From Burkholderiaceae bacterium (lineage in GTDB: Bacteria; Pseudomonadota; Gammaproteobacteria; Burkholderiales; Burkholderiaceae_C): a DNA stretch of 64,000 bases. The notes under the pieces were generated by a model. It did no database searches. It saw only the letters and a list, made by a program, of their open reading frames with translations, and was not told where the DNA came from. The stretch's first letter is position 1; each line of letters begins with the position of its first letter. The DNA lies in the NCBI GenBank assembly GCA_040382935.1, contig JBEIEP010000015.1:213-64212 (forward strand), in the 5' to 3' direction. This document shows positions 5,697 to 34,409 of the stretch, one piece after another. The translations under genes and the position numbers were made by a program.

Positions 5697-6941
5697 CTAG
5701 TCAGGCCTATAGCCATACAACCAAGGCCGGTCTAGCAGCGCCCTGCCATTCACCTTGAGCGCCAGATTGCGCGCCACGGCTAAAGGGCCGTTGGCATGAA
5801 AAATCTTTGCGTTGCGTCTGGCCCCGGCCTGTACTTTTGCGACGCGGGCCTGACGTTGTTGCACGTAGTGCTGGGCCAGGCTTGGGTGATGGGTTTGTTT
5901 ATTGTTTGCTGGCAAGGTGGCACACCCTTGTGCGATAGACCAGGCGTCTTCAATAGACATGGCCGCGCCTTGCGCCAAAAATGGCAGCATAGGGTGGGCA
6001 GCATCGCCCAGCAACAGCGTGCTGGGGTGCGGTACCAGCTCTTTTGATTGGGAAACCGGTGGCCTGTCAAACAAGGCCCATGACCGCCATTGCTCAACCG
6101 AGTCAACCAGCTGCGCCAAGGTTTTGTGGCCTATAGGGGTGCGAAGCGGCAGTTTAGAGGTCATTTGGCGTTGCTCCCACAGCGTATCCACCTGTGCCAA
6201 AGGCACCTGCAAAATGACCACCAAGTTGTACAAGTCCCCTGCACGAACCGGGTAGCCCACCGTGTGCATATCGGGGCCTAGCCAAACGCTTACACATTGT
6301 CCGGTTAATCCTAAATTAAGATTTTTCAGCGGTAACAAGGCGCGAAATGCCACTTGCCCGGTAACAGCAGGCGGGCCATCGGCCAACAACAACGCCCGCA
6401 CCTGGCTAAATCCGCCATCGCAACCCAATAGCAAATCGGTGGTGATTGGGTCTGCCAACTCGTCCCCCTGCAACTTCGCCCTGAGCGTCAATGCGCCGTC
6501 TGGCCCTTGATCAATACCGGTGAGTTCTCGGTTCAACGCCAGTTGCGCCCAGCCCTCGCGTTGAACGGCCTCAAGCAACAGTTGATGAAGGTCTGCGCGG
6601 TGAACGGTCGTGTACGGCGCACCATACTGCTGTGCGCTGGTTGAGCCAAGGGGTTTGGTGGCCAAGGTTTCAGTGCGCAAAGCGTTGCACACCGCCAGGC
6701 TGACGGGCTGGCTACCGATGCGTGCCAAGGCTGGGCCTAAACCCATGCGAATGAGCAAGCCACTGGCATTGGGTCCCAATTGCAAGCCGGCTCCGACTTC
6801 TTCAAATCGGGGGGCCCGTTCCCAGAGCGTGAGCGAACCTAAGGCTTTTTGCGCGCGTTGCCCCAACGCCAGCGCCAATGTCAAACCCGCAATGCCACCC
6901 CCCACAATCACACCACGGTTGAACCGCAGGGAATTGGGCAT
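5697..6941 (-). CDS. FAD-dependent monooxygenase (UbiH/salicylate hydroxylase family)
   Basis: Contains GVIVGGGIAGLTLALAL (GxGxxG), CDGGFSQVR and LLGDAAHPMLPFLAQGAAMSIEDA. Confidence 0.8.
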   Translation of the reverse strand: MPNSLRFNRGVIVGGGIAGLTLALALGQRAQKALGSLTLWERAPRFEEVGAGLQLGPNASGLLIRMGLGPALARIGSQPVSLAVCNALRTETLATKPLGSTSAQQYGAPYTTVHRADLHQLLLEAVQREGWAQLALNRELTGIDQGPDGALTLRAKLQGDELADPITTDLLLGCDGGFSQVRALLLADGPPAVTGQVAFRALLPLKNLNLGLTGQCVSVWLGPDMHTVGYPVRAGDLYNLVVILQVPLAQVDTLWEQRQMTSKLPLRTPIGHKTLAQLVDSVEQWRSWALFDRPPVSQSKELVPHPSTLLLGDAAHPMLPFLAQGAAMSIEDAWSIAQGCATLPANNKQTHHPSLAQHYVQQRQARVAKVQAGARRNAKIFHANGPLAVARNLALKVNGRALLDRPWLYGYRPD

Positions 6942-11405: not shown

Positions 11406-12662
11406 ATGTACGACCGTTCACAACTCGTAGAACAAGTAGACCCCCAACTGTGGGCCGCTATCGTTGCCGAAAACCAAAGGCAGGAGCACCACATCGAACT
11501 GATCGCCAGCGAGAACTACGCCTCGCCTGCCGTTATGGCTGCCCAGGGTTCGCAACTGACTAACAAATACGCCGAAGGTTATCCCGGCAAGCGGTATTAC
11601 GGTGGCTGTGAGAACGTCGACATTGCCGAGCAGTTGGCGATAGACCGCGTGCGCCAGTTGTTTGGCGCGGATGCCCACGGCTGGGGTGCCAACGTGCAAG
11701 CCCATTGCGGCGCATCGGCCAATGAAGCGGTGTTCTTGGCTTTCTTGAAGCCAGGCGACACGATTATGGGAATGAGCTTGTCGGAAGGGGGTCACCTGAC
11801 GCATGGCATGGCACTCAATATGAGTGGAAAATGGTTTAACGTAGTCAGCTACGGCCTCGATGCCAACGAGGCCATTGACTACGAAGCGATGGAGCGCAAA
11901 GCCCACGAATCCAAACCTAAACTCATTATTGCGGGTGCTTCTGCCTATTCCCTGCATATTGACTTTGCCCGCTTTGCCAAGGTGGCCAAAGACGTAGGCG
12001 CGATTTTTATGGTGGACATGGCGCATTACGCCGGGCTGATCGCGGCAGGTGTCTACCCCAACCCCATTCCCCACGCCGATGTGGTCACCTCTACCACGCA
12101 CAAAAGCCTTCGTGGCCCCCGTGGCGGCATCATTTTGATGCGCCCCGAGCACGAAAAAGCCATTAACAGCGCCATATTCCCAGGCCTTCAAGGCGGGCCG
12201 CTGATGCATGTGATCGCGGCCAAGGCCGTGGCCTTTAAAGAGGCCCTGTCGCCCTCATTCAAAACCTATCAACAACAGGTGGTGACAAACGCCGCCATCG
12301 TGGCCCAAACCTTGACCGAGCGCGGATTGCGCATCGTTAGCGGTGGAACCCAAAGCCACGTGATGTTGGTCGACTTGCGTTCCAAAGGCATTACCGGCAA
12401 AGTGGCCGAAGCCGTTTTGGGCGACGCCCACATCACCACAAACAAAAATGGCATCCCCAACGACCCTGAAAAGCCAATGGTCACCAGCGGCATACGCGTG
12501 GGCACCCCTGCCATGACCACCCGCGGTTTCAAAGACGAAGAGGCCCGCCTTACCGCCCATTTGGTGGCCGACGTACTAGACAACCCGCACGACCCCGCCT
12601 GCATCGCCACCGTGCGCGCCAAGGTTAACGAGCTAACCGCCCGTTTCCCGGTGTACCGCTGA
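11406..12662 (+). CDS. glyA: Serine hydroxymethyltransferase
   Basis: Contains [39 protein letters not shown] and [14 protein letters not shown] (PLP lysine). An alternative start is at 11379. Confidence 0.95.
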
Positions 12663-16134: not shown

Positions 16135-16521
16135 ATGTCAGTTCATAAATCGAAGGTTGAATGGGCCGAGCGTTGCCCTGTTCGTGACGTGCTGGAGCGC
16201 ATGGGCGACCGTTGGAGCATGTTGGTGCTGCTCATGTTGCGTGACCACACCACCATGCGATTCAGTGTTTTGAAAAACACGATTGGCGACATCTCGCAAC
16301 GCATGCTTTCACAAACACTGCGCCGTTTAGAACAAGACGGCCTGATACTGCGCGTTGCCCATCCCACCGTACCGCCTAGGGTGGACTACTCCTTAACCGA
16401 GCTTGGCAGGTCGTTTATGCAACCCATGGGCCACCTGCTGGCTTGGGCCGACCAAAACCACCAGCAGGTGCGAGATGCCCGCTTGGCCTACGTGCCACCG
16501 CCCAAGCATGAGGCTTTGTAG
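16135..16521 (+). CDS. HxlR-family transcriptional regulator
   Basis: Contains CPVRDVLERMGDRWSMLVLLML...LSQTLRRLEQDGLILR. Confidence 0.85.
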   Translation: MSVHKSKVEWAERCPVRDVLERMGDRWSMLVLLMLRDHTTMRFSVLKNTIGDISQRMLSQTLRRLEQDGLILRVAHPTVPPRVDYSLTELGRSFMQPMGHLLAWADQNHQQVRDARLAYVPPPKHEAL

Positions 16522-16637
16522 GCCGTAGCAACGATACCCAAAGTCTTAATCATGCTTGGGTTCGAGTGGCTCGTTATTAAAAAAACCTGTTATTAATCAA
16601 TTAGTTAAGAAAATAGTATACATTTTTAAATTTACAT

Positions 16638-16686
16638 ACAGTTAGTCTGTTTGTAAATGTATAAATAAAACAAACTGACTGTTTGT
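16638..16686. promoter_or_regulatory. Two related inverted-repeat motifs upstream of the TetR gene (candidate operator)
   Basis: acagttagtctgtttgt (16638-16654) and acaaactgactgtttgt (16670-16686, arms ACAAAC/GTTTGT) lie in an AT-rich spacer that ends 13 nt before the ATG. Confidence 0.3.
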
Positions 16687-19036: not shown

Positions 19037-19684
19037 TTACGTTTTCACAACCAACTCAAACTGTGCATGCAGTTCCTGGCCTTTGGCCACAAAAGGACGC
19101 GTCAAAACGGCGCGCTCTTCTGTGTTCAGTCTGCGCCAAATGCTGTCCTTGGCGTTCTCAGGATGGCCCTCGATATAGAACTGTGTGGTTAACAGTGTTT
19201 TGCGCCCTAGCTTCACTTTGACATGAATATGCGGCGTGCGTCCCACGTAAGTTCCGGGATGGATGGTGCGAAATTGGAAGCGGCCATCGGCGGCGACTTG
19301 GACTCGACCAAAACCTTGAAACTCTTTATGCGCCTTATTTCCGTCGCCAGAATGATGATAGTTGCCTTTGTGGTCACATTGCCAAATTTCCACCACGGCG
19401 TTTGGCAGCGGTTTGCCATGGATGTCGTAAACGACTCCACCAACCAAAGCGATTTGACCCTTGTCGTAAACGGCTGAGCCGCTTTTGACCAAGTCCCAAT
19501 CGTTGTCGGCCGGGATAGCTTCGGGGTAAAAAGGCCCTTCGGGTTGGCTAGGGGTACGCCGCAAGGTTTTGGCTTCGCTTACCGATGGGGTTAACGCCAT
19601 TTGGCCCACCACAGCTCCCACCGCCAGCGCTGAAACACCAGTGACAAGGGTGCGGCGAGAAAGATTCAATTTTTGACTCAGCAT
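19037..19684 (-). CDS. Intradiol ring-cleavage dioxygenase family protein with Tat signal
   Basis: MLSQKLNLSRRTLVTGVSALAVG carries the twin-arginine motif. The iron-ligand region GRTPHIHVKV is present. The ATG at 19684 is preceded by AAGGA. Confidence 0.75.
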   Translation of the reverse strand: MLSQKLNLSRRTLVTGVSALAVGAVVGQMALTPSVSEAKTLRRTPSQPEGPFYPEAIPADNDWDLVKSGSAVYDKGQIALVGGVVYDIHGKPLPNAVVEIWQCDHKGNYHHSGDGNKAHKEFQGFGRVQVAADGRFQFRTIHPGTYVGRTPHIHVKVKLGRKTLLTTQFYIEGHPENAKDSIWRRLNTEERAVLTRPFVAKGQELHAQFELVVKT

Positions 19685-24500: not shown

Positions 24501-25481
24501 ATGACAAAATTCAATATTTTGGTGCTCCAAGATGCCTACGCATCCAGCGTGGCGCTCACCCTCGATATTCTTTCGGCAGCCGCTTTCATAGCGTCTCAAC
24601 AAAAGCTCATCGCACCGCAGTACAAGCTTTACAGCTTCCAGGGAGGAGAAATTACGCTGTCCAACGGTATGAGGCTGACCACACACTCTTTTGCGCGCAA
24701 ACGGTTGAACAAAGATGAAATATGGCTCGTCCCCGGCATTGGCATCAGCTCAGCTTTGCAGGCAAGTGCTCGCCTCGCGCAGCCTGACGCGCAATCTGCT
24801 GTCGCACTATTGAAAAAGGCGAACCAAGCAGGCTGCCGCATGGCCGCCTCATGCTCGGCCGTCCTGCTCTTGCAGCAAGCGGGCTTGCTCGTGAATAAGC
24901 GTGTGACCACGGCTTGGTGGCTAGCGCCGCTCTTACAGCAGCGCGAGAGTAGCTGCCAGATCGATGCCAATCGCATGATCGTGAGCGATGGGCGCTTGGT
25001 GACTGCTGGCGCTGCTTTGGCGCAATCGGATTTGATGCTGTATTTGCTGCGCGAGCACTCCGGCATCAAGCTAGCTGACGCTGTGGCGCGGGTGCTCTTG
25101 ATCGACAAGCGCCAAAGTCAAGCGCCTTTCATCGTGCCACAAGCATATGCTAGTGGCAACCAATTGGTCGCGCAATTGAGCGCGCGCTTAGAGGCTGCAC
25201 TGCCCGAGCCGCCCAGCATGCAGACGCTCGCGCAAGAGATGTGCATGTCGGAGCGCACATTGGCCAGACACGTCCGCGCTGCCACAGGCCGCGCACCGCT
25301 AGCCATGCTGCAAAGCATTCGTATCCACAGGGCCCAAGCCCTGCTACAAAACAGCCGCCTCTCAGTCGATGAAATCGCCGCCCGCGTTGGCTACCAAGAT
25401 GCTACTGCGTTACGTAGACTACTCAAAACAACAATGCAATCCACGCCCCGTCAAATCCGCCGGCATACAGATCTGCGCTGA
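24501..25481 (+). CDS. AraC-family regulator with DJ-1/PfpI-like N-terminal domain (GlxA type)
   Basis: The N-terminal part is class I GATase-like. The C-terminal part has MQTLAQEMCMSERTLARHV...VDEIAARVGYQDATALRRLL (two HTH motifs). Confidence 0.85.
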   Translation: MTKFNILVLQDAYASSVALTLDILSAAAFIASQQKLIAPQYKLYSFQGGEITLSNGMRLTTHSFARKRLNKDEIWLVPGIGISSALQASARLAQPDAQSAVALLKKANQAGCRMAASCSAVLLLQQAGLLVNKRVTTAWWLAPLLQQRESSCQIDANRMIVSDGRLVTAGAALAQSDLMLYLLREHSGIKLADAVARVLLIDKRQSQAPFIVPQAYASGNQLVAQLSARLEAALPEPPSMQTLAQEMCMSERTLARHVRAATGRAPLAMLQSIRIHRAQALLQNSRLSVDEIAARVGYQDATALRRLLKTTMQSTPRQIRRHTDLR

Positions 25482-25734
25482 TCCCCCCTGTGCCAGAATG
25501 ACTTGCTGCACCTACCCCAGTTAGTTTAGAGAACCATGAGGTAGGTATGAAGATCAACAAACAACCCAAGGCACAAATGCATGCAGCCGCAGATTTAGTC
25601 GATACAGGCGAATCGCAAGAAGCCCGAAGTGAACATCACCCCATTCGGCGGCACCAACCAACGGCTCAGTCTCAGGTCAAAATGTTACCCGGATTTGAAC
25701 CACGCCAAAAGTCTCATGCCTGAATGGGAAATGA

Positions 25735-26394
25735 CTACCCAGTCATAAGAATAGTTGGCAGCAAATTCATATTAGAAAAGACAGCCACGGTCGCGGAACT
25801 TTGAATCTCGTCTTCGGCATCATCTTGGACGGCTGGTTCTGGCCTAAACCAGAACGGTTTCATGCAAGCCCGTTGTGCTGCGACTATCCCTATGGCGCTG
25901 TCCTCAACGACTGCGCAACTTGCGGGGTCAACGCCCATATCACGAGCAGCGAAGAGAAATAGGCCAGGCTCGGGCTTCCAAGAGTTCACGACGTAGGAAC
26001 TGAATATCCTGTTGCCAAAATAGTGCGCAAGACCCGTTACCCTCAACGCTTGCCGGATCTTCTCCGGTGGACCGCTAGATGCAACGCACACTGGCAGAGT
26101 GATCGCATCTAACGCTTGCTTAACACCGGGAATGGGGACTAGTTGGCGTTCGAACAATTCGCTGACACGTTGGCGATACCGGTCAACAAATTTCTTGTCA
26201 ATGCGGCGACCATGTGTCGTCTCCATAACTTCTAGAATTCGGTCTAGCTTTGCGCCCCGGAACCGCTTCCTCATGTCGTCGGCTGATTCACGAATCCCAA
26301 TGTCTTCGAGCTCCTTTTGCATTGCCTGGTGGCCGAGAAACTCACTGTCGACGAGAGTTCCGTCAAGATCGAAAATTACGCATCGACAAGGCAT
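25735..26394 (-). CDS. HAD-IA family hydrolase/phosphatase
   Basis: Contains VIFDLDGTLVDSE (motif I), VCVASSG (motif II) and VEDSAIGIVAA (motif IV). Its GC is lower than in the core genes. Confidence 0.8.
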   Translation of the reverse strand: MPCRCVIFDLDGTLVDSEFLGHQAMQKELEDIGIRESADDMRKRFRGAKLDRILEVMETTHGRRIDKKFVDRYRQRVSELFERQLVPIPGVKQALDAITLPVCVASSGPPEKIRQALRVTGLAHYFGNRIFSSYVVNSWKPEPGLFLFAARDMGVDPASCAVVEDSAIGIVAAQRACMKPFWFRPEPAVQDDAEDEIQSSATVAVFSNMNLLPTILMTG

Positions 26395-26510
26395 GGATTT
26401 TCCTCAATAGGCGAGCATCTGAGCAGAACACTGATCGATTGTGCAACTCCGTTGACGCCCCCAGCTTCGCCGTCAACAACGTCCCATTTGCGACTAAATG
26501 CCTCTTCCCG

Positions 26511-26528
26511 TTACTCCCACTCAATTGT
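26511..26528 (-). repeat. Third, short copy of the guaA 3' terminus (att-like core)
   Basis: ttactcccactcaattgt matches tcactcccactcaatcgt at 32799-32816 at 16 of 18 positions, in the same orientation. Its reverse complement encodes TIEWE* like GuaA. It sits at the left edge of the low-GC block. Confidence 0.5.
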
Positions 26529-26974
26529 CAACCCGCAAGAAAAGTTGAATTTCATCACACCGTGTCGCACTTGGTTGGACAGTGGCTACTGATTGTGCAA
26601 GGTCGTCCATACCGTCAGCTTTACCGTCGGGAAAAACCAGACTAAATTTTGGCCGTTCGTCGCCTGCAAGCGAAATGCTGTTTTCAACCACCAATGGGTT
26701 TAATGGAAAGAAAATTATGCCAGCATCTCACGCACGCATCAATCAAATCCCTACCCTGCAAAGCAGAAGACTACGATATCGACCTCCATAAAAAAAAGCG
26801 AGACGATGCAGCAAAAAGTGTGGCACGATCTGTCGAAACTTCACTGATTTTCGAACGCCTGAATCACCTGTTCTTCCTGATCATCTCAAGGAGTTAGCAT
26901 GCATTGAACACATGTTTGCTTCCTGAGCCCCAAATGAATTACTCAAGTACGTAGCGAGCAATCAAGCCGCAGCC

Positions 26975-28516
26975 TTAAAGCTTAGTAAGCCCCGCAATTA
27001 TTGCTGTGACGCATTTTTGTTGCTGAATGGGCGACAAATTCGCGCGCAAAAGACGGTAATGGAACACTGCTAAAGCATAATAGTAATTTTGGAAAGATTC
27101 ATTGGGAAAATTTGCCTTTGCCAAGCCCCTTATTGTTTGAATAATTTCAAAAGATTCAGATTTTGCATGTGCGACTGATTGTCCTGCTTGGATTTCATCC
27201 TCCAAGTAGTGCAGCCAATTAGAAGGTTCTGTCGACTTTCCAAAAAGTCGAATGCTTGACTCCATTGTTACAAAGTCCTCAAACACATGTCCACGCCCAG
27301 TCTCTTGAAAATCTATAAATATGACGTCCTCCAATTTCGAGACGATGACGTTGTTGGAGTTAAGATCACCATGGCATATGCAGGAAAGATAGCGATCCAT
27401 CGGCGTACCAAATAACCGCGCGTGCGGTTCGACTACAACGATACCTGCGACGGCCAGTCTTTTTCCCTGCACAATAGCCCGAAATGTATCTGAGGCCACG
27501 CGATTAAAAACTAAAGCACTCGTGGCTTTCGCCTCAGCTCCACTAAAGTACCGCTTTGAATAATGCTCAACTATATTTGTGGATGATTCTATTAACTCCT
27601 CGCCGTACCATCGGCGCATATTAGGACTAAAAATTCTCTCGATTACTTTTCTAACAACATCAAAACTTCCCGTTTCAAGAAAATAAGTAAGAGAATTGAA
27701 ATCAACACCGGAGTCACCCTGAATAAACGAATATGCAACAGCACCGAGACTTTTTGTTTCTCCGCTTCCAAGTAAATCAACCCGCCACTTATACGGCAGC
27801 CCCCATTTTACGAATTTGTTGTAATTATTGAGTTCTGACGCAGCCCACTCTCGTTCTGATACTTTGAGCACTGCTGGAACAGATTCGAGTTTGCTTTTGC
27901 TGTTAAATGTGTTGAACTTATAAACCTTGCTCCCACTGAATCCGCCCGCAAGTTTACTTATGCGGACAGTATCAGGGGTGATCTGCGTATCAGAGTCATG
28001 TCCGGTGAACGTGATCTGAGCAAGAAGTGAATTAAATTCTCTAAGCTGACCTTTTGATTTAAAGTCATCGTGGTAAGCGGTCCCGGATTCTTCTATTTTG
28101 AGAATAGTATTGATCCGAAAACGAGAAGCGAATTGCTGGGCGCAAATCTCGATGTACGGTTTGTTTTTACCAATCAGTTCTCCTTTATCAAAAAACATAT
28201 CGAAAAATGCTTTTTTAGCAAAGACATTTCTCGGTGAATATTCTGAACCTGACGCAAGAATGCGAAAGATGTCTGGATACTCCGTGCGGAGGGTTTTTAG
28301 GATTAACAGTCCATCCGCTACTTGCCCAAGGGACATATCGCATATGACAACATGTGGCCAATTTTTATCTATCTCTTTACGAGCCTCGCCTTCTGATGTT
28401 GTCAAGGCAAAAGTTGCGTTGTATCCAGCCAAGTTAAAAATCTCTTGGTAGCTACTTTCCAATTTTCTCGCTAAATCGATGCTTGACTCGACTATTAAAA
28501 CTTTAACTGGTTTCAT
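26975..28516 (-). CDS. Receiver (REC) domain fused to a protein-kinase-like/APH-type phosphotransferase domain
   Basis: REC features: KVLIVESS, phospho-acceptor D60 in VVICDMS, ILASGS and FDKG. Kinase-like features: G-loop GGFSGSKVY, AVLKV, catalytic HGDLNSNN and IDFQETG. GGAG precedes the ATG. Confidence 0.75.
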   Translation of the reverse strand: MKPVKVLIVESSIDLARKLESSYQEIFNLAGYNATFALTTSEGEARKEIDKNWPHVVICDMSLGQVADGLLILKTLRTEYPDIFRILASGSEYSPRNVFAKKAFFDMFFDKGELIGKNKPYIEICAQQFASRFRINTILKIEESGTAYHDDFKSKGQLREFNSLLAQITFTGHDSDTQITPDTVRISKLAGGFSGSKVYKFNTFNSKSKLESVPAVLKVSEREWAASELNNYNKFVKWGLPYKWRVDLLGSGETKSLGAVAYSFIQGDSGVDFNSLTYFLETGSFDVVRKVIERIFSPNMRRWYGEELIESSTNIVEHYSKRYFSGAEAKATSALVFNRVASDTFRAIVQGKRLAVAGIVVVEPHARLFGTPMDRYLSCICHGDLNSNNVIVSKLEDVIFIDFQETGRGHVFEDFVTMESSIRLFGKSTEPSNWLHYLEDEIQAGQSVAHAKSESFEIIQTIRGLAKANFPNESFQNYYYALAVFHYRLLRANLSPIQQQKCVTAIIAGLTKL

Positions 28517-28541
28517 TCTTCGGCTCCAAATTTTTACAGCG

Positions 28542-30944
28542 TCATGCAGGATAGGGGATTTTTATCAAGCACTCGGTATTGTTTCTAGTAGCTTCTCTTG
28601 TGAGAAAAACCTGTCCACCAAGCGTTTTTGTAATCATTCCGATGAGTAACATGCCGTAGCGAGCTCCCCTGTCATTTGAAATTATCGGAGCAACACACAT
28701 GCGATCAAGAATTCCTTGATCTCGAATTGCACCGTGCTTGGACGTTATGCGTACGATTGACCTATCACCAATCCCGAATATTGGTCGGTCATCAATAGTG
28801 ATCGAATGGGCATCAGATTGCTCGATACTTCCGTGTGACACTGTGTTCTGAATTAAATTTTTAACAATAAACTGAAAGCCAAACCAGTAGCTGTTTGGGA
28901 AACGCTCTTTGGATAATGATTTAACTTGAACAAGATTAATAATCTTTCTCCGATTTTCTTCGGAAAGAGCAGCATACGCCAAAGAAACCCACTCACTCAG
29001 CCAATCGCCAAAAGGTAAACCGTGACCGTGACCGTGATCCTGGTCTCTAAGCCGAAACAACTTCGATAAAAGCTGTTGCTGATTTGAGGAAAAAATGGAG
29101 TTCTCCACAGACAGGTGTTGATCCAACTCGTGAACGGCGGCATGAGTGCTGATCTGTTTGGCAAGGCTACGGATGTCGCTATAGCCAAGAGTGTGCGAGT
29201 AAGCTTCCTCAATGTTGTCTCTAACTGCCTTTAAATAGCTTTCCATTCCGTCAAAAGCACGGGGCATTGGGGCCTCTAAGTTTATTGTCCCGACAGGTAC
29301 TTTTCCAAACCTGAGCGGAAGACAAGCTTCAGACCGAGTGTTGTGCCTTGCATTAATCGTAGAATTTAGACCCTTCTTGCGTAGCTCAATTGGAATGTAG
29401 GATGCATTTGGACGAGTCGAGTCGATAAACGGAATATTTATGAAATCTAAGCCATCGATTGCATGGGCGAAAGCAAAAGCGTTTACGCTTGTACGAAATT
29501 GACTTGCACGAATCTCAAAATTTTCGCTTGAACTTGAATATTTACCCTCAGAGTCCCTAGCCTTTGCAACCAATCTAAGCTCTCGCGAGTCTTGCTCATA
29601 CAACCTAACCGTCATGCTGTGAGCCATGGTTGCAGCAATTGTTTGATGAGACATCCATTCTGAAAAGTCTACAAAATCAGATAGAAGTTGCGGGTAAGTA
29701 ACCTCGCTAAAGGTCTTTTGTTTTGATTTTAGAGCCTGGAGACGTTGACGTGCAAATACCAATGATTCGAGGCGTTTAGAAATAGTTTTTTGCCTAACAA
29801 ACTCATCCAGTATGACCTCGACAGAATATATGTCGTTTCTTTGAAATGGTTGATCGGAAAGAACGATAACGAGAAATCTCGGTCGTGTCGGCTTTGCGGC
29901 TGCAAACAATTCTGGAGTGGTTAGCGGAAATACCATGCCTTGTTGGCTACTTTGCTTGGCACTAGGTTCGAAATACTGTGGTTTTGCAAAATGCACTGCA
30001 TCAACAAGTGCCGCCCAGGTTGGCGTAGTCTTCCCACGTAGCGTGACCGGACGTCCGCGATGATTCAACGAACCATGCAATTCGCTTGGGATAACGATTG
30101 AAGTTTCACCAAATTTCGCTTCCTCAAACCCTTTATTACTATCAAATGCATGCGTTTGATCTGCCTGTTTTTGAAAAGCCAACCAGCTAGCAACTTTGGC
30201 AATAGAATCGTCATTGCGACTTGTTGACATGAGGATAATATGATCTGGTTGGACATGCACCACCACGCTTTCAAGTCTAGTATGCGACTCAATTTGATCT
30301 GCGACAGCTACAAGCCAATCTTGACTCTTATCCGTTAGCTCGATTCGGACTTTATCTCTCAGTTCAGAATGGTCATCACGATCAATGCTCAGTTTAATGA
30401 CTGAGTTTTCGTAAAAAAGATCGACCATCAGTCCAAGTTGTTGCAGTGTTTGTCTAACAAAATTCACGTCGCCGAAAATTTTGTAGTGCTCCGATTCCAG
30501 TATTTTTTTTGTAGCCCAATCATGTCCTAGAATACGTATAGCCTCCGCTTCGAGTGCGCTACCTGAGTCAAATGTTAAAGCGGGTGAACCTAGTCTGATC
30601 GAAAAACTGAGAGCGGTACTTTTCCTATTTCTAGATTTCGTATGCTGCATAAAAAGTAACGATCCAGATAGTATTTCGTTAAATACAACCGAGAATTCGT
30701 CGATGTCAGCAAGCGTTAAGAGCACGCCGCGAGAGATTTTTCTCAGCAGTGCAGAGTTAATTTTCCGAAACAAACTCGACAGTCGCTTTTGATTACCAGG
30801 GTACGCTTGCCTGTTCCGATTCCGTAAGTTTTCTTCAGGTGTTGCTATACCTAGGTTGGCCGGAGTGGAAGACCTTGCCTCATACGAGTTTGTAGTCGTT
30901 AGAGGCATCGAGCCAGTATCAGGGGAGGTTTTGATCATTCCCAT
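28542..30944 (-). CDS. Cytoplasmic sensor: unknown N-terminal region, GAF-like domain, HisKA_3-like helix and GHKL ATPase
   Basis: I saw no TM segment. The GAF-like stretch ends CLPLRFGKVPVGTINLEAP. The H-box candidate is HAAVHELDQHL, the N-box VKNLIQNTVSHG and the G-box DRGARYGMLLIGMITKTLGGQV. The start lies 5 nt after the upstream stop. Confidence 0.7.
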   Translation of the reverse strand: MGMIKTSPDTGSMPLTTTNSYEARSSTPANLGIATPEENLRNRNRQAYPGNQKRLSSLFRKINSALLRKISRGVLLTLADIDEFSVVFNEILSGSLLFMQHTKSRNRKSTALSFSIRLGSPALTFDSGSALEAEAIRILGHDWATKKILESEHYKIFGDVNFVRQTLQQLGLMVDLFYENSVIKLSIDRDDHSELRDKVRIELTDKSQDWLVAVADQIESHTRLESVVVHVQPDHIILMSTSRNDDSIAKVASWLAFQKQADQTHAFDSNKGFEEAKFGETSIVIPSELHGSLNHRGRPVTLRGKTTPTWAALVDAVHFAKPQYFEPSAKQSSQQGMVFPLTTPELFAAAKPTRPRFLVIVLSDQPFQRNDIYSVEVILDEFVRQKTISKRLESLVFARQRLQALKSKQKTFSEVTYPQLLSDFVDFSEWMSHQTIAATMAHSMTVRLYEQDSRELRLVAKARDSEGKYSSSSENFEIRASQFRTSVNAFAFAHAIDGLDFINIPFIDSTRPNASYIPIELRKKGLNSTINARHNTRSEACLPLRFGKVPVGTINLEAPMPRAFDGMESYLKAVRDNIEEAYSHTLGYSDIRSLAKQISTHAAVHELDQHLSVENSIFSSNQQQLLSKLFRLRDQDHGHGHGLPFGDWLSEWVSLAYAALSEENRRKIINLVQVKSLSKERFPNSYWFGFQFIVKNLIQNTVSHGSIEQSDAHSITIDDRPIFGIGDRSIVRITSKHGAIRDQGILDRMCVAPIISNDRGARYGMLLIGMITKTLGGQVFLTREATRNNTECLIKIPYPA

Positions 30945-30949
30945 ACTAT

Positions 30950-31276
30950 TTATAGTGCTACTCTAAGTTCGTGCGACAACTCAGGGTGTTTAATGATGAG
31001 CTTCAGTAAACAGACCACTCCACCGGGCGGAACAAATCTCCCCTGCTCCCAATCGCGCAACGTCGCTACCGGGGTAGCTATCCGTTCCGCGAATGCGGCT
31101 TGCGTCAGACCCGCTTTCTCACGCGCCTGTCGCACCAAAATTTGCTCGGGTATGGTGACTCGGCCAAGCCCGGTTTGCGCTTCAGCGAGTGCTTGCCGCA
31201 GATCAGGCAACGTCTCCCCAACGTCAGCTTCAAACGCCGCGGCCACCTTTTCAATGTCGATCTTTTTGATGCCCAT
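30950..31276 (-). CDS. HTH protein of the COG2944/HigA-2 antitoxin family
   Basis: Contains ILVRQAREKAGLTQAAFAERIATPVATLRDWEQGRFVPPGGVVCLLKLIIKHPEL. I chose the ATG at 31276 (MGIKKID). The longer 173-aa ORF is a read-through of the decayed toxin. Confidence 0.75.
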   Translation of the reverse strand: MGIKKIDIEKVAAAFEADVGETLPDLRQALAEAQTGLGRVTIPEQILVRQAREKAGLTQAAFAERIATPVATLRDWEQGRFVPPGGVVCLLKLIIKHPELSHELRVAL

Positions 31277-31277
31277 G

Positions 31278-31575
31278 TCACACCACCTTTTCGATTCCGG
31301 CTGGAAGCGTGTTGGCACTGTCGGCCTTGGCGAAGGCCGACACCAGCAACACCACTCCTGCTCGATCAAGTTGAAGTAGATCACCCGCGTACCACCTGAT
31401 TTGCCCGACCCGCCGCGGCCCCATCGAACATTGCCCGCTCCGTCCGCGCCGGGGACAACATCCCCAGCCAACGGGTTAGCAGCTTTTCAATCGATGAACC
31501 CAGCCGCTCGGTTTCAGTCCATAGCTTCTCTACTTGCCTCTGGATGGTGAACGTCTCAGTTTCTGTACGAATGCT
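31278..31575 (-). pseudogene. Decayed RelE/HigB-2-like toxin gene (two frameshifts plus an in-frame TGA)
   Basis: Homology is spread over three frames: IRTETETFTIQRQVEKLWTETERLG, then FID*KAANPLAGDVVPGADGAGNVRWGRGGSGKSGGTRVIYFNLIEQE, then GVVLLVSAFAKADSANTLPAGIEKVV*. No start codon sits at the expected N-terminus. Confidence 0.6.
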
Positions 31576-31751
31576 CTGATTGTACGGGATTTCCGTACTT
31601 ACGCAACATCCAACTGATGGCATAGCCCGTCCCATGTTTATGCCACTAGTCACACGAGACAGGGCTAAAAAAGGGAACGTTCGTATCGTAAAGCGACGGT
31701 GCAGCTTGATTTATTTACATCCAGTGCGATTCAGGACGACCCACTCGTACA

Positions 31752-31924
31752 TCACTCCCACTCAATCGTAGCCGGCGGCTTACTACTCACGTCATAAGTC
31801 ACCCGGATAATGCCTTTCACCTCGTTAATGATGCGGCTGGACACTTTTTTGAGCAAGGCGTAGGGTAGTTCTGCCCAGTCTGCGGTCATAAAGTCGGTGG
31901 TTTGTACGGCTCTTAGGGCCACCA
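31752..31924 (-). repeat. 173-bp direct copy of the guaA 3' end (att-type duplication)
   Basis: It aligns base by base with 32799-32971, stop codon included, with 5 mismatches (31807, 31827, 31842, 31856, 31908). Confidence 0.9.
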
Positions 31925-31974
31925 TCCACGATGTGACCCGTCGTTATGATGCGCGCGCTATCCATCGTCTTCCT

Positions 31975-32394
31975 TCAAGCAAAGTAAAAAGCTACCCGGT
32001 CAGTTGTCCAAGTAGCCACACCAGTGCCAAAGAAATCCGTGTCTTCAGTCCAGACGGGACAACCTAATGTCATCGCGCACGCCAGTACAGGCCAATCGTC
32101 CGCGTCACGAACCGCGATGCGTTGCAAGGCCTGCTGTTGCATGCCTTCATAGAGTTCGGCATCAATGGATTGCACAACACCCTCAAGCCTATCCAGCACC
32201 AGCATTGCTGCACTGGAATCAACGTCGCGCTTTTTCAGCAACTCGGGCAGGTACTTTCGTGCGTCTGCATACGCAACATCAGGGGCAAAGAACTTGACCG
32301 TCCCAGCGTTGTCACAAATCAGTTCACGCACTCGCTTTCCCAATACCGCACGAATCAGAATGTTCGCATCAAGAACGATGGTCTTGCCACTCAT
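31975..32394 (-). CDS. vapC: PIN-domain toxin VapC
   Basis: Starts MSGKTIVLDANILIRAVLG and has WTEDTDF near the C-terminus. It overlaps the antitoxin gene by 4 nt. Confidence 0.85.
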   Translation of the reverse strand: MSGKTIVLDANILIRAVLGKRVRELICDNAGTVKFFAPDVAYADARKYLPELLKKRDVDSSAAMLVLDRLEGVVQSIDAELYEGMQQQALQRIAVRDADDWPVLACAMTLGCPVWTEDTDFFGTGVATWTTDRVAFYFA

Positions 32395-32678
32395 GCCGCT
32401 TTGACTTTCAGTTTTTTAGCGGGTGTGCTGGCTTTCCTGCGTGCTGCTTTGAAGTCTGCAACCACGGACTCAACATCCACCCCCTGTGCCTCAAGCAACT
32501 TGTCCAAGGTCTTGCTGGCTTTTTTCAAGGCTGCGATGTCTGCTTCAACTTCTCCCTGCGTGGGGATGAAGTAGCCAACTGTTTGGCCATGCCGAGTTAC
32601 AGCCACCGGCGTGTTGGAAGCGATGTACTCTGCTAGGTCGGAGCGAAATTCGCGTATGCCTACCTTTGTCGTTTCCAT
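32391..32678 (-). CDS. Phd/YefM-family antitoxin
   Basis: Starts METTKVGIREFRSDLAEYIASNTPVAVTRHGQTVGYFIP. The start was chosen at 32678. Confidence 0.8.
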   Translation of the reverse strand: METTKVGIREFRSDLAEYIASNTPVAVTRHGQTVGYFIPTQGEVEADIAALKKASKTLDKLLEAQGVDVESVVADFKAARRKASTPAKKLKVKAA

Positions 32679-32798
32679 GTGGATGCCCCTTTGGTTGTGA
32701 ATCTGTGTGTACACATTTTACGCGGTAATCCCCCCGACCATTCGTACCGCGATCGCCGCTCATTGCGCACGGCTCTAACGAACATCAGTCCTTGAACC

Positions 32799-34409
32799 TC
32801 ACTCCCACTCAATCGTAGCCGGCGGCTTACTACTCACGTCATAAGTCACCCGGTTAATGCCTTTCACCTCGTTGATGATGCGGCTGGATACTTTTTTGAG
32901 CAGGGCGTAGGGTAGTTCTGCCCAGTCTGCGGTCATAAAGTCGGTGGTTTGTACCGCTCTTAGGGCCACCACGTAGTCGTAGGTGCGGCCGTCGCCCATC
33001 ACGCCTACGCTTTTAACGGGTAGGAACACGGCAAAGGCTTGGCTGGTCAGGTCGTACCAGGATTTCCCAGTGGCGGGGTCTTGGTGGTTGCGTAGTTCTT
33101 GAATAAAGATGGCGTCGGCGCGGCGTAGCAGGTCGGCGTATTCTGGTTTGACTTCGCCCAGTATGCGTACGCCAAGGCCTGGGCCTGGGAAGGGGTGTCG
33201 GTACACCATGCTGGCGGGTAATCCCAGGGCAATGCCCAGTTCGCGCACTTCGTCTTTGAACAGGTCGCGCAGGGGTTCTAGCAATTGAAGGCCTAGCTGC
33301 TCAGGCAGGCCGCCCACGTTGTGGTGGCTTTTGATGGTGACGGCTTTTTTGTTTTTGGCCCCGCCGGACTCGATCACGTCAGGGTAGATGGTGCCTTGCG
33401 CCAGCCATGCCACATGGCGTGATTGTTGGTTTTTAAGGGCGGTGGCCTCTGCCTTAAACACCTCTACAAACTCGCGGCCAATGATTTTGCGTTTGGCCTC
33501 GGGGTCGGTTACGCCCGCCAGATGGCCTAAGAACTGCCCGGCCGCATCCACCCGAATTACCTTGGCGTGCAGTTGGCCCACAAACATGTCCATCACGGCA
33601 TCGCCTTCGTTGAGGCGTAGCAGGCCGTGGTCCACAAACACGCAAGTGAGTTGGTCGCCAATGGCGCGGTGAATCAAAGCCGCTGCCACCGATGAATCCA
33701 CCCCGCCGGACAGGCCTAAGATGACTTCTTCGTTGCCCACTTGGGCGCGTATTTTGGCCACCGCCTCGGCGATGTAGTCGCCCATAATCCAGTCGGCCTG
33801 GGTTTGGCAAATGTCTAAAACAAAGCGCCGCAGCAAGGCATTGCCCTGGCGGGTGTGGGTGACCTCGGGGTGAAACTGCACGGCGTAAAAATGCCGCGCT
33901 TCGTCGGCCATACCTGCAATGGGGCAGGCGTCGTTAGAGGCCATGAGCTTAAAGCCGGGGGGCAAGGCGGTGACTTTGTCGCCGTGGCTCATCCACACGT
34001 CCAACAGGCCGTGGCCCTCTGGGGTGGTTTCGTCGGCTATGCCGCTTAGCAAGGCGGTGTGGCCACGGGCGCGCACACGGGCTGCACCAAACTCACGGGT
34101 CGTGCCCGCCTCTACCGTGCCGCCCAGTTGCTGGGCCATGGTTTGCATGCCGTAGCAAATGCCCAACACCGGTACGCCCAATGTAAACACCGCCTCTGGG
34201 GCTTTGTCGGTTTCGGCCTCGTAGGCGCTGGCATGGCTGCCCGATAGCACCACGCCTTTGAGTTGGCCATCGGCGGCAAAGGCTTTGACCCATTCGTCGG
34301 ACACGTCGCAGGGGTGTACTTCGCAGTACACGTGGGCCTCGCGGATGCGGCGGGCGATGAGTTGGGTGACCTGAGAGCCAAAGTCAAGAATCAGAATTTT
34401 TTGGTGCAT
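32799..34409 (-). CDS. guaA: GMP synthase (glutamine-hydrolysing)
   Basis: Starts [24 protein letters not shown]. Also has [15 protein letters not shown] and the C-terminal KPPATIEWE. The 668-aa ORF extension overlaps guaB and is rejected. Confidence 0.95.

Follow-up and report, generated by a model that had tools for sequence, protein, structure and literature searches.

Downstream of guaA, the gene for GMP synthase, in a 64,000-nt stretch of an uncultured Comamonadaceae-like lineage (Burkholderiaceae bacterium, contig JBEIEP010000015.1; hereafter the window, to which all coordinates refer unless another locus is named), two segments of DNA lie in tandem, each bounded by directly oriented copies of the guaA 3′ terminus. 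The arrangement is probably the result of tandem accretion, at the guaA 3′ end, of two decayed elements that lack an integrase and resemble cis-mobilizable elements (CIMEs). The guaA 3′ end would have served as an attachment (att) site that was struck at least twice by integrative elements, both of which would later have lost their integration and transfer genes, leaving att-flanked remnants side by side. Serial integration at guaA, as proposed by a first-pass annotation of this DNA, is supported by the att core shared by all copies, the use of the same site in relatives, the synonymous divergence of the longest repeat and the absence of a recombinase. The mechanism is not new, the window being a new example of a known process of accretion and decay at a known hot spot, but it suggests that the guaA 3′ end can keep cargo after the mobile machinery has gone.

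Three copies of the guaA terminus

The array consists of guaA, three copies of its terminus and the two inserts between them, here called E1 and E2:

32799..34409, minus strand: guaA, intact, encoding GMP synthase of 536 aa that ends TIEWE-stop (Pfam GATase and GMP_synt_C)
32799..32971, minus strand: copy 1, the final 173 nt of intact guaA; weak similarity continues to 32791
31925..32798, minus strand: E1, the proximal insert, 874 bp, bounded by the 173-nt repeats in direct orientation
31752..31924, minus strand: copy 2, displaced guaA 3′ fragment of 57 codons and stop (GMP_synt_C, E = 6e-28)
26529..31751, minus strand: E2, the distal insert, 5.2 kb, with imperfect 18-bp repeats at its two ends (copies 2 and 3, 16/18 identical)
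26511..26528, minus strand: copy 3, the guaA terminus as an att-like stretch of 18 nt, ACAATTGAGTGGGAGTAA, the distal boundary of E2

GuaA is full length, with residues 1/2-536 aligning to its counterparts in 80 relatives (80 Burkholderiales loci fetched with GuaA, of which 77 were used for counts of termini and of invariant residues) at a top identity of 86%. The 173-nt recurrence reported by the first-pass annotation was recovered both by BLASTN (173 nt aligned, 5 mismatches, no gaps, 168/173 identical) and by a repeat finder, which returned a 181-nt direct repeat at 96% identity (31744-31924 and 32791-32971). The 18-nt third copy was confirmed by a pattern search, in which TCACTCCCACTCAATCGT matched with no mismatch at 32799 and 31752 and with two mismatches at 26511-26528, where it reads TTACTCCCACTCAATTGT. 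On the coding strand copy 3 has TAA for TGA and ACA for ACG; both differences preserve the reading T-I-E-W-E-stop, and ACAATT and TAA are natural variants of the guaA terminus among relatives. All three copies share one strand (minus), and their arrangement is serial, in tandem, rather than nested as had been stated. The gene content previously given for the intervals, a phd-vapC-type pair in E1 and a low-GC sensor/effector block with a toxin-antitoxin (TA) relic in E2, agrees with Pfam/NCBIfam annotation.

Matches of this quality are not expected by chance: shuffles predict 0.03 matches to the 18-mer at up to three mismatches in the whole window, and own arithmetic about 0.003 at up to two mismatches on both strands of the 64 kb. 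The window contains just three occurrences of the 8-nt core TCCCACTC, one in each guaA copy, and the att core GAGTGGGA, which corresponds to the Glu-Trp-Glu codons, is present in all three. Copy 3 has no homology above shuffles past its 18 nt, and the sequences flanking each copy are unrelated to those flanking the others, again with nothing above shuffles. A partial core, GAGTGGG, stands 5 nt past the stop of copy 2 (31738-31748, minus; TGA TGTAC GAGTGGG TCG); it could represent the remains of a further att, a secondary site or coincidence, since by a post hoc estimate a specified 7-mer turns up within 30 nt in about 0.2% of cases.

Four of the five differences between copies 1 and 2 are synonymous (P = 0.012 versus neutral change), and the fifth is an Asn to Ile change in the copy 2 fragment at a residue that is invariant in the 77 relatives and that copy 1 keeps as Asn. 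Mostly synonymous divergence argues that the two copies evolved as functional guaA ends in separate lineages, while copy 2, once displaced, would be free to decay. At the synonymous sites copy 2 has host-preferred codons and copy 1 has rarer ones (GCG, GTA; host housekeeping genes contain GCC 243 times versus GCG 77 times, and GTG 166 times versus GTA 46 times), which suggests that copy 2 is the native end and that copy 1, the end now on guaA, is probably an imported surrogate. In situ tandem duplication as the source of the 173-nt pair is disfavoured by the same synonymous bias.

The guaA 3′ end as an integration site

GIsul2 enters the guaA 3′ end via att sites of 19 bp that contain the core GAGTGGGA, and the action of its integrase there has been shown experimentally (PMC9376610). 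PIMEs use the same guaA attB and carry immune systems (bioRxiv 10.64898/2026.01.12.698999), and BcenGI2 and a Brucella IncP island, which also carry immune systems, occupy the same guaA site as GIsul2. The site is the attB of elements that spread sul2 and immune systems in pathogens. Among the relatives, the att core lies within the last 18 nt of guaA in 68/77. Integrases adjacent to homologous elements, a search for which the first-pass annotation had proposed as a check, were found at 10/80 guaA loci, where a GIsul2-family integrase (Pfam Arm-DNA-bind_3 and Phage_integrase) lies 250-300 nt past the guaA stop. Identity to the pAB3 GIsul2 integrase (Int) is 53-92% at the eight loci where a single copy is either intact or cut off by the contig end, for example 92% at L028 and 57.7% at L020; in Ottowia thiooxydans (L015) the integrase is represented by two fragments downstream of guaA (11933-12229 and 16349-16663), and L046 has only a short match at the end of its contig.

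Scanning 480 kb of DNA downstream of guaA in the relatives revealed a further copy of the locus's own terminal 18-mer at only two loci, with about 0.01 matches expected by chance at up to two mismatches (own arithmetic). The first, L077, has a 726-bp insert (5940-6666) that encloses no gene but one for a DUF1801 protein, with a perfect 18-mer 709 nt downstream. The second, a Rhodoferax metagenome-assembled genome (MAG; L017, 3755-5352), has the att copy ATGATCGAGTGGGAGTAA 1.58 kb downstream, with two mismatches and a TAA stop; the insert holds only a VapB/PIN pair, and GACGGTA arm-like repeats precede the att copy. Integrase-less, att-flanked mini-inserts therefore recur at guaA, including remnants with a TA pair alone, and TA cassettes appear to be the typical last survivors at this site, both in E1 and in L017. 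For annotation, a short GAGTGGGA-bearing duplicate of the guaA terminus, or a longer piece of guaA out of place, can be taken to mark an island boundary even where no integrase is present. The L077 repeats extend about 50 nt beyond the guaA stop.

Assemblies of MAGs also break systematically at the guaA 3′ end. At 11/80 loci the contig runs out 0-207 nt past the guaA stop (L012, L014, L016, L023, L036, L039, L051, L052, L066, L073 and L074), two more end inside the guaA 3′ end, and two or three of the 80 end just upstream of the guaA start. Several of the stubs contain GIsul2-type arm repeats (CTATCG, GACGGTA). Short-k assemblies are broken by guaA repeats right after the gene, where 11-13 of 80 contigs stop.

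E2 is like GIsul2 and the PIMEs in having the last guaA codons as target, the core GAGTGGGA within imperfect att repeats of ~19 bp, and cargo of a defence or conflict type. It would have entered by a GIsul2-type site-specific event at an 18-19-bp att with this core, bringing two low-GC genes that form a signalling or conflict module, together with a pair of helix-turn-helix (HTH)/TA-like genes. The earlier proposal was that each element brought a surrogate 3′ end, but a long one would have come with E1 only, E2 having just a 19-bp-type att site. Unlike GIsul2 and the PIMEs, the window has no P4-type int by attL, no alpA, repA/repC or trbJ/trbL, and not even relics of these genes, and E1 and E2 have no recognisable arm repeats. 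The absence of a recombinase between 25482 and 32798, claimed from inspection of the open reading frames (ORFs), stands with Pfam searches in all frames and with tblastn. No recombinase domain was found in the named ORFs, Phage_integrase had no match in any frame of 25400-32900, and 63 other frames of at least 45 aa in the same interval gave no Pfam match at E <= 0.05 except two at chance level. Searches by tblastn against the whole window gave a best E of 0.1-0.2 for GIsul2 Int and six guaA-adjacent integrases, no backbone gene for the pAB3 GIsul2 proteins, and no match for any ORF of six int-bearing islands and of the L077 and L085 inserts. Arm-type repeats (CTATCG, CTGGCA, GACGGTA) were not recognisable in E1 or E2.

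CIMEs, described among ICESt1-related elements of Streptococcus thermophilus, arise from an ICE or IME by deletion, keep attL and attR, have lost integration and transfer genes, can be mobilised when a related element arrives, and undergo tandem accretion, so that units line up at a target gene's 3′ end through repeated site-specific integration (PMC5704250). E1 and E2 are like them in that their repeats are directly oriented at the guaA 3′ end and that they hold no integration, excision or transfer genes; the window differs in phylum, target and integrase families, and in that one of its units has a long repeat. The CR2-sul2 unit of GIsul2 offers a second likeness, as an integrase-less segment between guaA-type att cores (attLR and attR), and the pAB3 GIsul2 attLR, ACAATCGAGTGGGAGTGA, is close to copy 3 and has the same ACAAT-core arrangement. 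CR2-sul2 lies inside an integrase-encoding element, however, whereas the window is 64 kb without an integrase. The remnants had been regarded as immobilised, but they need not be, since att-flanked units without an integrase of their own, such as CIMEs and CR2-sul2, can move through accretion or with an integrase acting in trans. The integrase of GIsul2 recombines attL, attLR and attR with attB and also transfers the CR2-sul2 unit, which has no integrase (PMC9376610). Taken further, the three att sites might still be live, as a docking array that lets GIsul2/PIME-family integrases visiting the cell store, excise and exchange cassettes lacking an integrase, here a TA module and a signalling/defence module; in a variant, the TA cassette would home via its 173-nt guaA arm and host homologous recombination, without an integrase. 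Such an array is unlikely, but if real it would make the end of an essential gene a cassette platform resembling an integron.

Could copy 3 be a chance or convergent match, with the low-GC block of E2 having come by another route, for example one mediated by an insertion sequence? The copy has 18 nt only, BLAST ranks its 13-nt exact core no higher than random 13-mers, its flanks have no arm-type sites, and the drop in GC is not sharp at 26511-26528. Furthermore, a homologous low-GC gene pair in another locus (L082, 558-4386; 42% and 69% aa identity) adjoins an IS30 transposase fragment. Against this, the expected number of matches given above is far below one for the whole window, and copy 3 lies on the same strand at the exact att position, retains the full 8-nt core that is unique to the copies, keeps T-I-E-W-E-stop and sits at the end of a compositionally foreign block, while equivalent extra copies bound the small inserts in L017 and L077. 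A chance origin of copy 3 is on these grounds very improbable.

The proximal insert and its toxin-antitoxin cassette

E1 contains a Phd-like/PIN_2 TA cassette and little else:

32724..32798, minus strand: left-end spacer, 75 nt from the guaA stop to the cassette, absent from other copies of the cassette
31967..32723, minus strand: Phd-like/PIN_2 TA cassette, 757 nt
32391-32678 (the ORF could reach 32714), minus strand: antitoxin, 95 aa, Phd-like
31975-32394, minus strand: toxin (PIN_2, E = 2.7e-40), overlapping the antitoxin by 4 nt
31925..31966, minus strand: right-end spacer, 42 nt from the cassette to the guaA fragment, outside the conserved cassette

The antitoxin matches PhdYeFM_antitox weakly (E = 0.002-0.003, 18 bits against a cut-off of 29.8 bits) and has no NCBIfam match. 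The layout is that of a type II TA system, with a PIN toxin after a small overlapping antitoxin gene and the pair co-conserved at 88-96% aa identity elsewhere. The 75-nt spacer has no significant similarity to GIsul2-type P′ arms. Homologues of the toxin number in the thousands at 85-97% aa identity, versus at most 86% for GuaA and at most 54% for the haloacid dehalogenase (HAD) hydrolase that flanks the array on its far side. The whole 757-nt block is 89% identical in Betaproteobacteria bacterium UKL13-2 (L085, 7672-8427), where it lies in a guaA-tadA island 5 kb past guaA and the guaA 3′ ends are only 66-75% identical, and 82% identical in L168 (5672-6416), where it stands alone between a methyl-accepting chemotaxis protein gene and a PEP-CTERM gene. 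Both copies, in distant Burkholderiales, have the same left boundary (window 32723); their loci are unrelated and have no flanking repeats, and no long duplications flanking the cassette were found in other genomes. By these comparisons the cassette is a discrete, mobile module of ~750 nt that is far more conserved than the host genes.

The anatomy of E1 is that of e14 and phage 21 in Escherichia coli icd, where the element supplies a 3′ end that makes the gene whole again and the native end is moved to the far att site, persisting in that case as the icdC pseudogene. The duplicated end is 165 nt in e14/icd versus 173 nt in the window, with a perfectly identical 5′ edge of 11 versus 16 nt, and 10 of 12 differing positions are synonymous versus 4 of 5. 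As at icd, the window combines a duplication of more than 100 nt with an intact gene and a fragment at the far end; it is unlike icd in its target, guaA, in the identity of the copies (97% vs 93%), and in that int/xis and element genes lie between the copies of e14 whereas E1 holds the TA cassette only. By analogy, the E1 element would have carried its own functional last 173 nt of guaA, and recombination at the 5′ edge of this block would have joined guaA to the imported end, with the native end shifted to 31752-31924. The addiction cassette would then be the sole survivor of a deletion within E1, probably because its loss was counter-selected.

The same structure could have arisen with no integrase and no decay, if a fragment or circle from a sister strain, carrying a guaA 3′ end and the TA cassette, recombined with the resident guaA; single-crossover (Campbell-type) homologous recombination and homology-facilitated illegitimate recombination would each duplicate the 173 nt. 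E1 is essentially the cassette with its 75- and 42-nt spacers, and the solitary copies at non-att sites elsewhere, free of flanking repeats, indicate that the cassette moves without a dedicated att. The 5′ junction has only short GTGG/TGG microhomology, and the copies are 3% diverged, like alleles of close strains, when guaA of the nearest genera is 25-34% diverged; the synonymous bias fits two alleles equally well. There is, however, no direct evidence of such a donor arrangement, e14/icd yields the same anatomy by a known mechanism, and the guaA site is a proven integrase hot spot at which the TA-only remnant of L017 has ordinary short att repeats and arm-like GACGGTA repeats. An integrase-free origin of E1, the main alternative for this insert, is considered rather unlikely.

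A contig from a sister lineage (JGI 3300059473, 17,547 bp) is collinear with window 11.4-19.7 kb, from the dioxygenase gene (19037-19684) to glyA, and its toxin is 97% identical to that of the window. Its cassette lies ~240 nt from the dioxygenase gene and adjoins an rve gene, and the contig is without E2 and the block from the HAD hydrolase to the GMC oxidoreductase. It has just enough room for a guaA fragment (guaA′); if one is present, window 19.7-26.5 kb (HAD to GMC oxidoreductase) would be a further insertion. A 32-aa ORF starts 10 nt past the toxin stop of this contig, a distance matched in the window by ORF 31825-31965.

Several observations weigh against accretion and decay at guaA. 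On the sister contig the cassette is not beside guaA. Under decay, E1 must have been trimmed closely on both sides, since the cassette fills 757 of its 874 nt. No long displaced guaA fragment was found within 10 kb of guaA in the relatives, and no family of integrases was found whose crossover lies 173 nt inside guaA. Neither insert has a GIsul2/PIME backbone gene or arm site, so the link of E2 to this family rests on 18 nt and position. No unoccupied guaA junction was found, the best GuaA relative being 86% identical and without synteny downstream of guaA; none could be shown because the collections searched hold no close relative, the exact GuaA, PIN, HAD, guaA′ and antitoxin proteins being absent from the position index and a metagenome scan with the dioxygenase reaching at most 59% identity. 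Finally, the junction between the TA cassette and guaA′ is on record in one assembly only.

This last point bears on whether the tandem is an assembly artefact. The contig is metagenome-assembled, the longest identical stretch between copies 1 and 2 is 66 nt, and such identity might have let the assembler thread in a separate molecule or strain variant, for example a 1,047-bp circle of TA cassette and guaA′; an independent Logan k=31 assembly of the contig's own sequencing run, ERR9973194, is interrupted precisely at this repeat (in copy 2). With five differences and no identity longer than 66 nt, however, reads of 100-150 nt and k > 66 resolve the paths. Moreover, the 31924/31925 junction has no k-mer-length identity to the guaA upstream sequence, so it cannot come from mis-joining of the graph and must exist in reads. 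An artefact is accordingly a highly improbable explanation, and accretion of two decayed elements is retained as the preferred reading.

The distal insert and the wider neighbourhood

The genes of E2, and the hydrolase gene beyond it, are as follows:

31381-31653, minus strand: ORF of 80/90 aa, no family match
30950-31276, minus strand: MqsA-like HTH protein, 108 aa (Pfam/NCBIfam); the frame is open for 65 codons further upstream
28542-30944, minus strand: GAF/histidine-kinase-like protein, 800 aa (Pfam/NCBIfam)
26975-28516, minus strand: REC and TCAD9/APH-like protein of 513 aa with a kinase fold (Pfam/NCBIfam)
26529-26974: non-coding DNA, 446 nt
25735..26394, minus strand: HAD-IA hydrolase (Pfam/NCBIfam), flanking the array on the far side

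The two large genes have a GC content of 42-44% versus 52-59% in their neighbours, while the 80/90-aa ORF and the MqsA-like gene, at 56%, are unlike the low-GC genes they adjoin; E2 is therefore a mosaic, and these two smaller genes may be a degraded TA pair. The 800-aa protein is one of a small family that lacks annotation and has a variable N-terminus (134 representatives among 1.8 billion proteins). Its GAF domain was recognised by profile comparison with the PDB (E = 1e-5), and its C-terminal part has histidine-kinase-like H, N and G boxes in which H605, N700, G764 and G777 are invariant; the match to SrrB is weak (E = 0.065). PADLOC identified no known defence family among the cargo genes scanned; the only matches were of two RmrA models (E = 0.0013 and 0.0099), both in the HTH part of the MqsA-like ORF. 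Searches of the gaps for RNA families, promoters and terminators gave nothing above chance.

The HAD-IA hydrolase, which resembles an ordinary sugar-phosphate phosphatase, has no homologue above 54% identity among 5.8 billion proteins and may itself be acquired DNA. Beyond it the gene order departs from that of relatives. In 18 of them (for example L002, L003, L010, L019, L025 and L057) guaA is followed by a (paiB-like)-tadA/hydrolase fusion-ldcA cluster, and in the window the paiB-like, tadA and ldcA genes lie at 5571-2605, 27 kb further on in the same orientation. A single 27-kb island downstream of guaA is ruled out by the housekeeping genes glyA, ribD and ribE within this interval. These genes stand there together with accessory catabolic genes, and the region beyond guaA has therefore been remodelled well past the two inserts.

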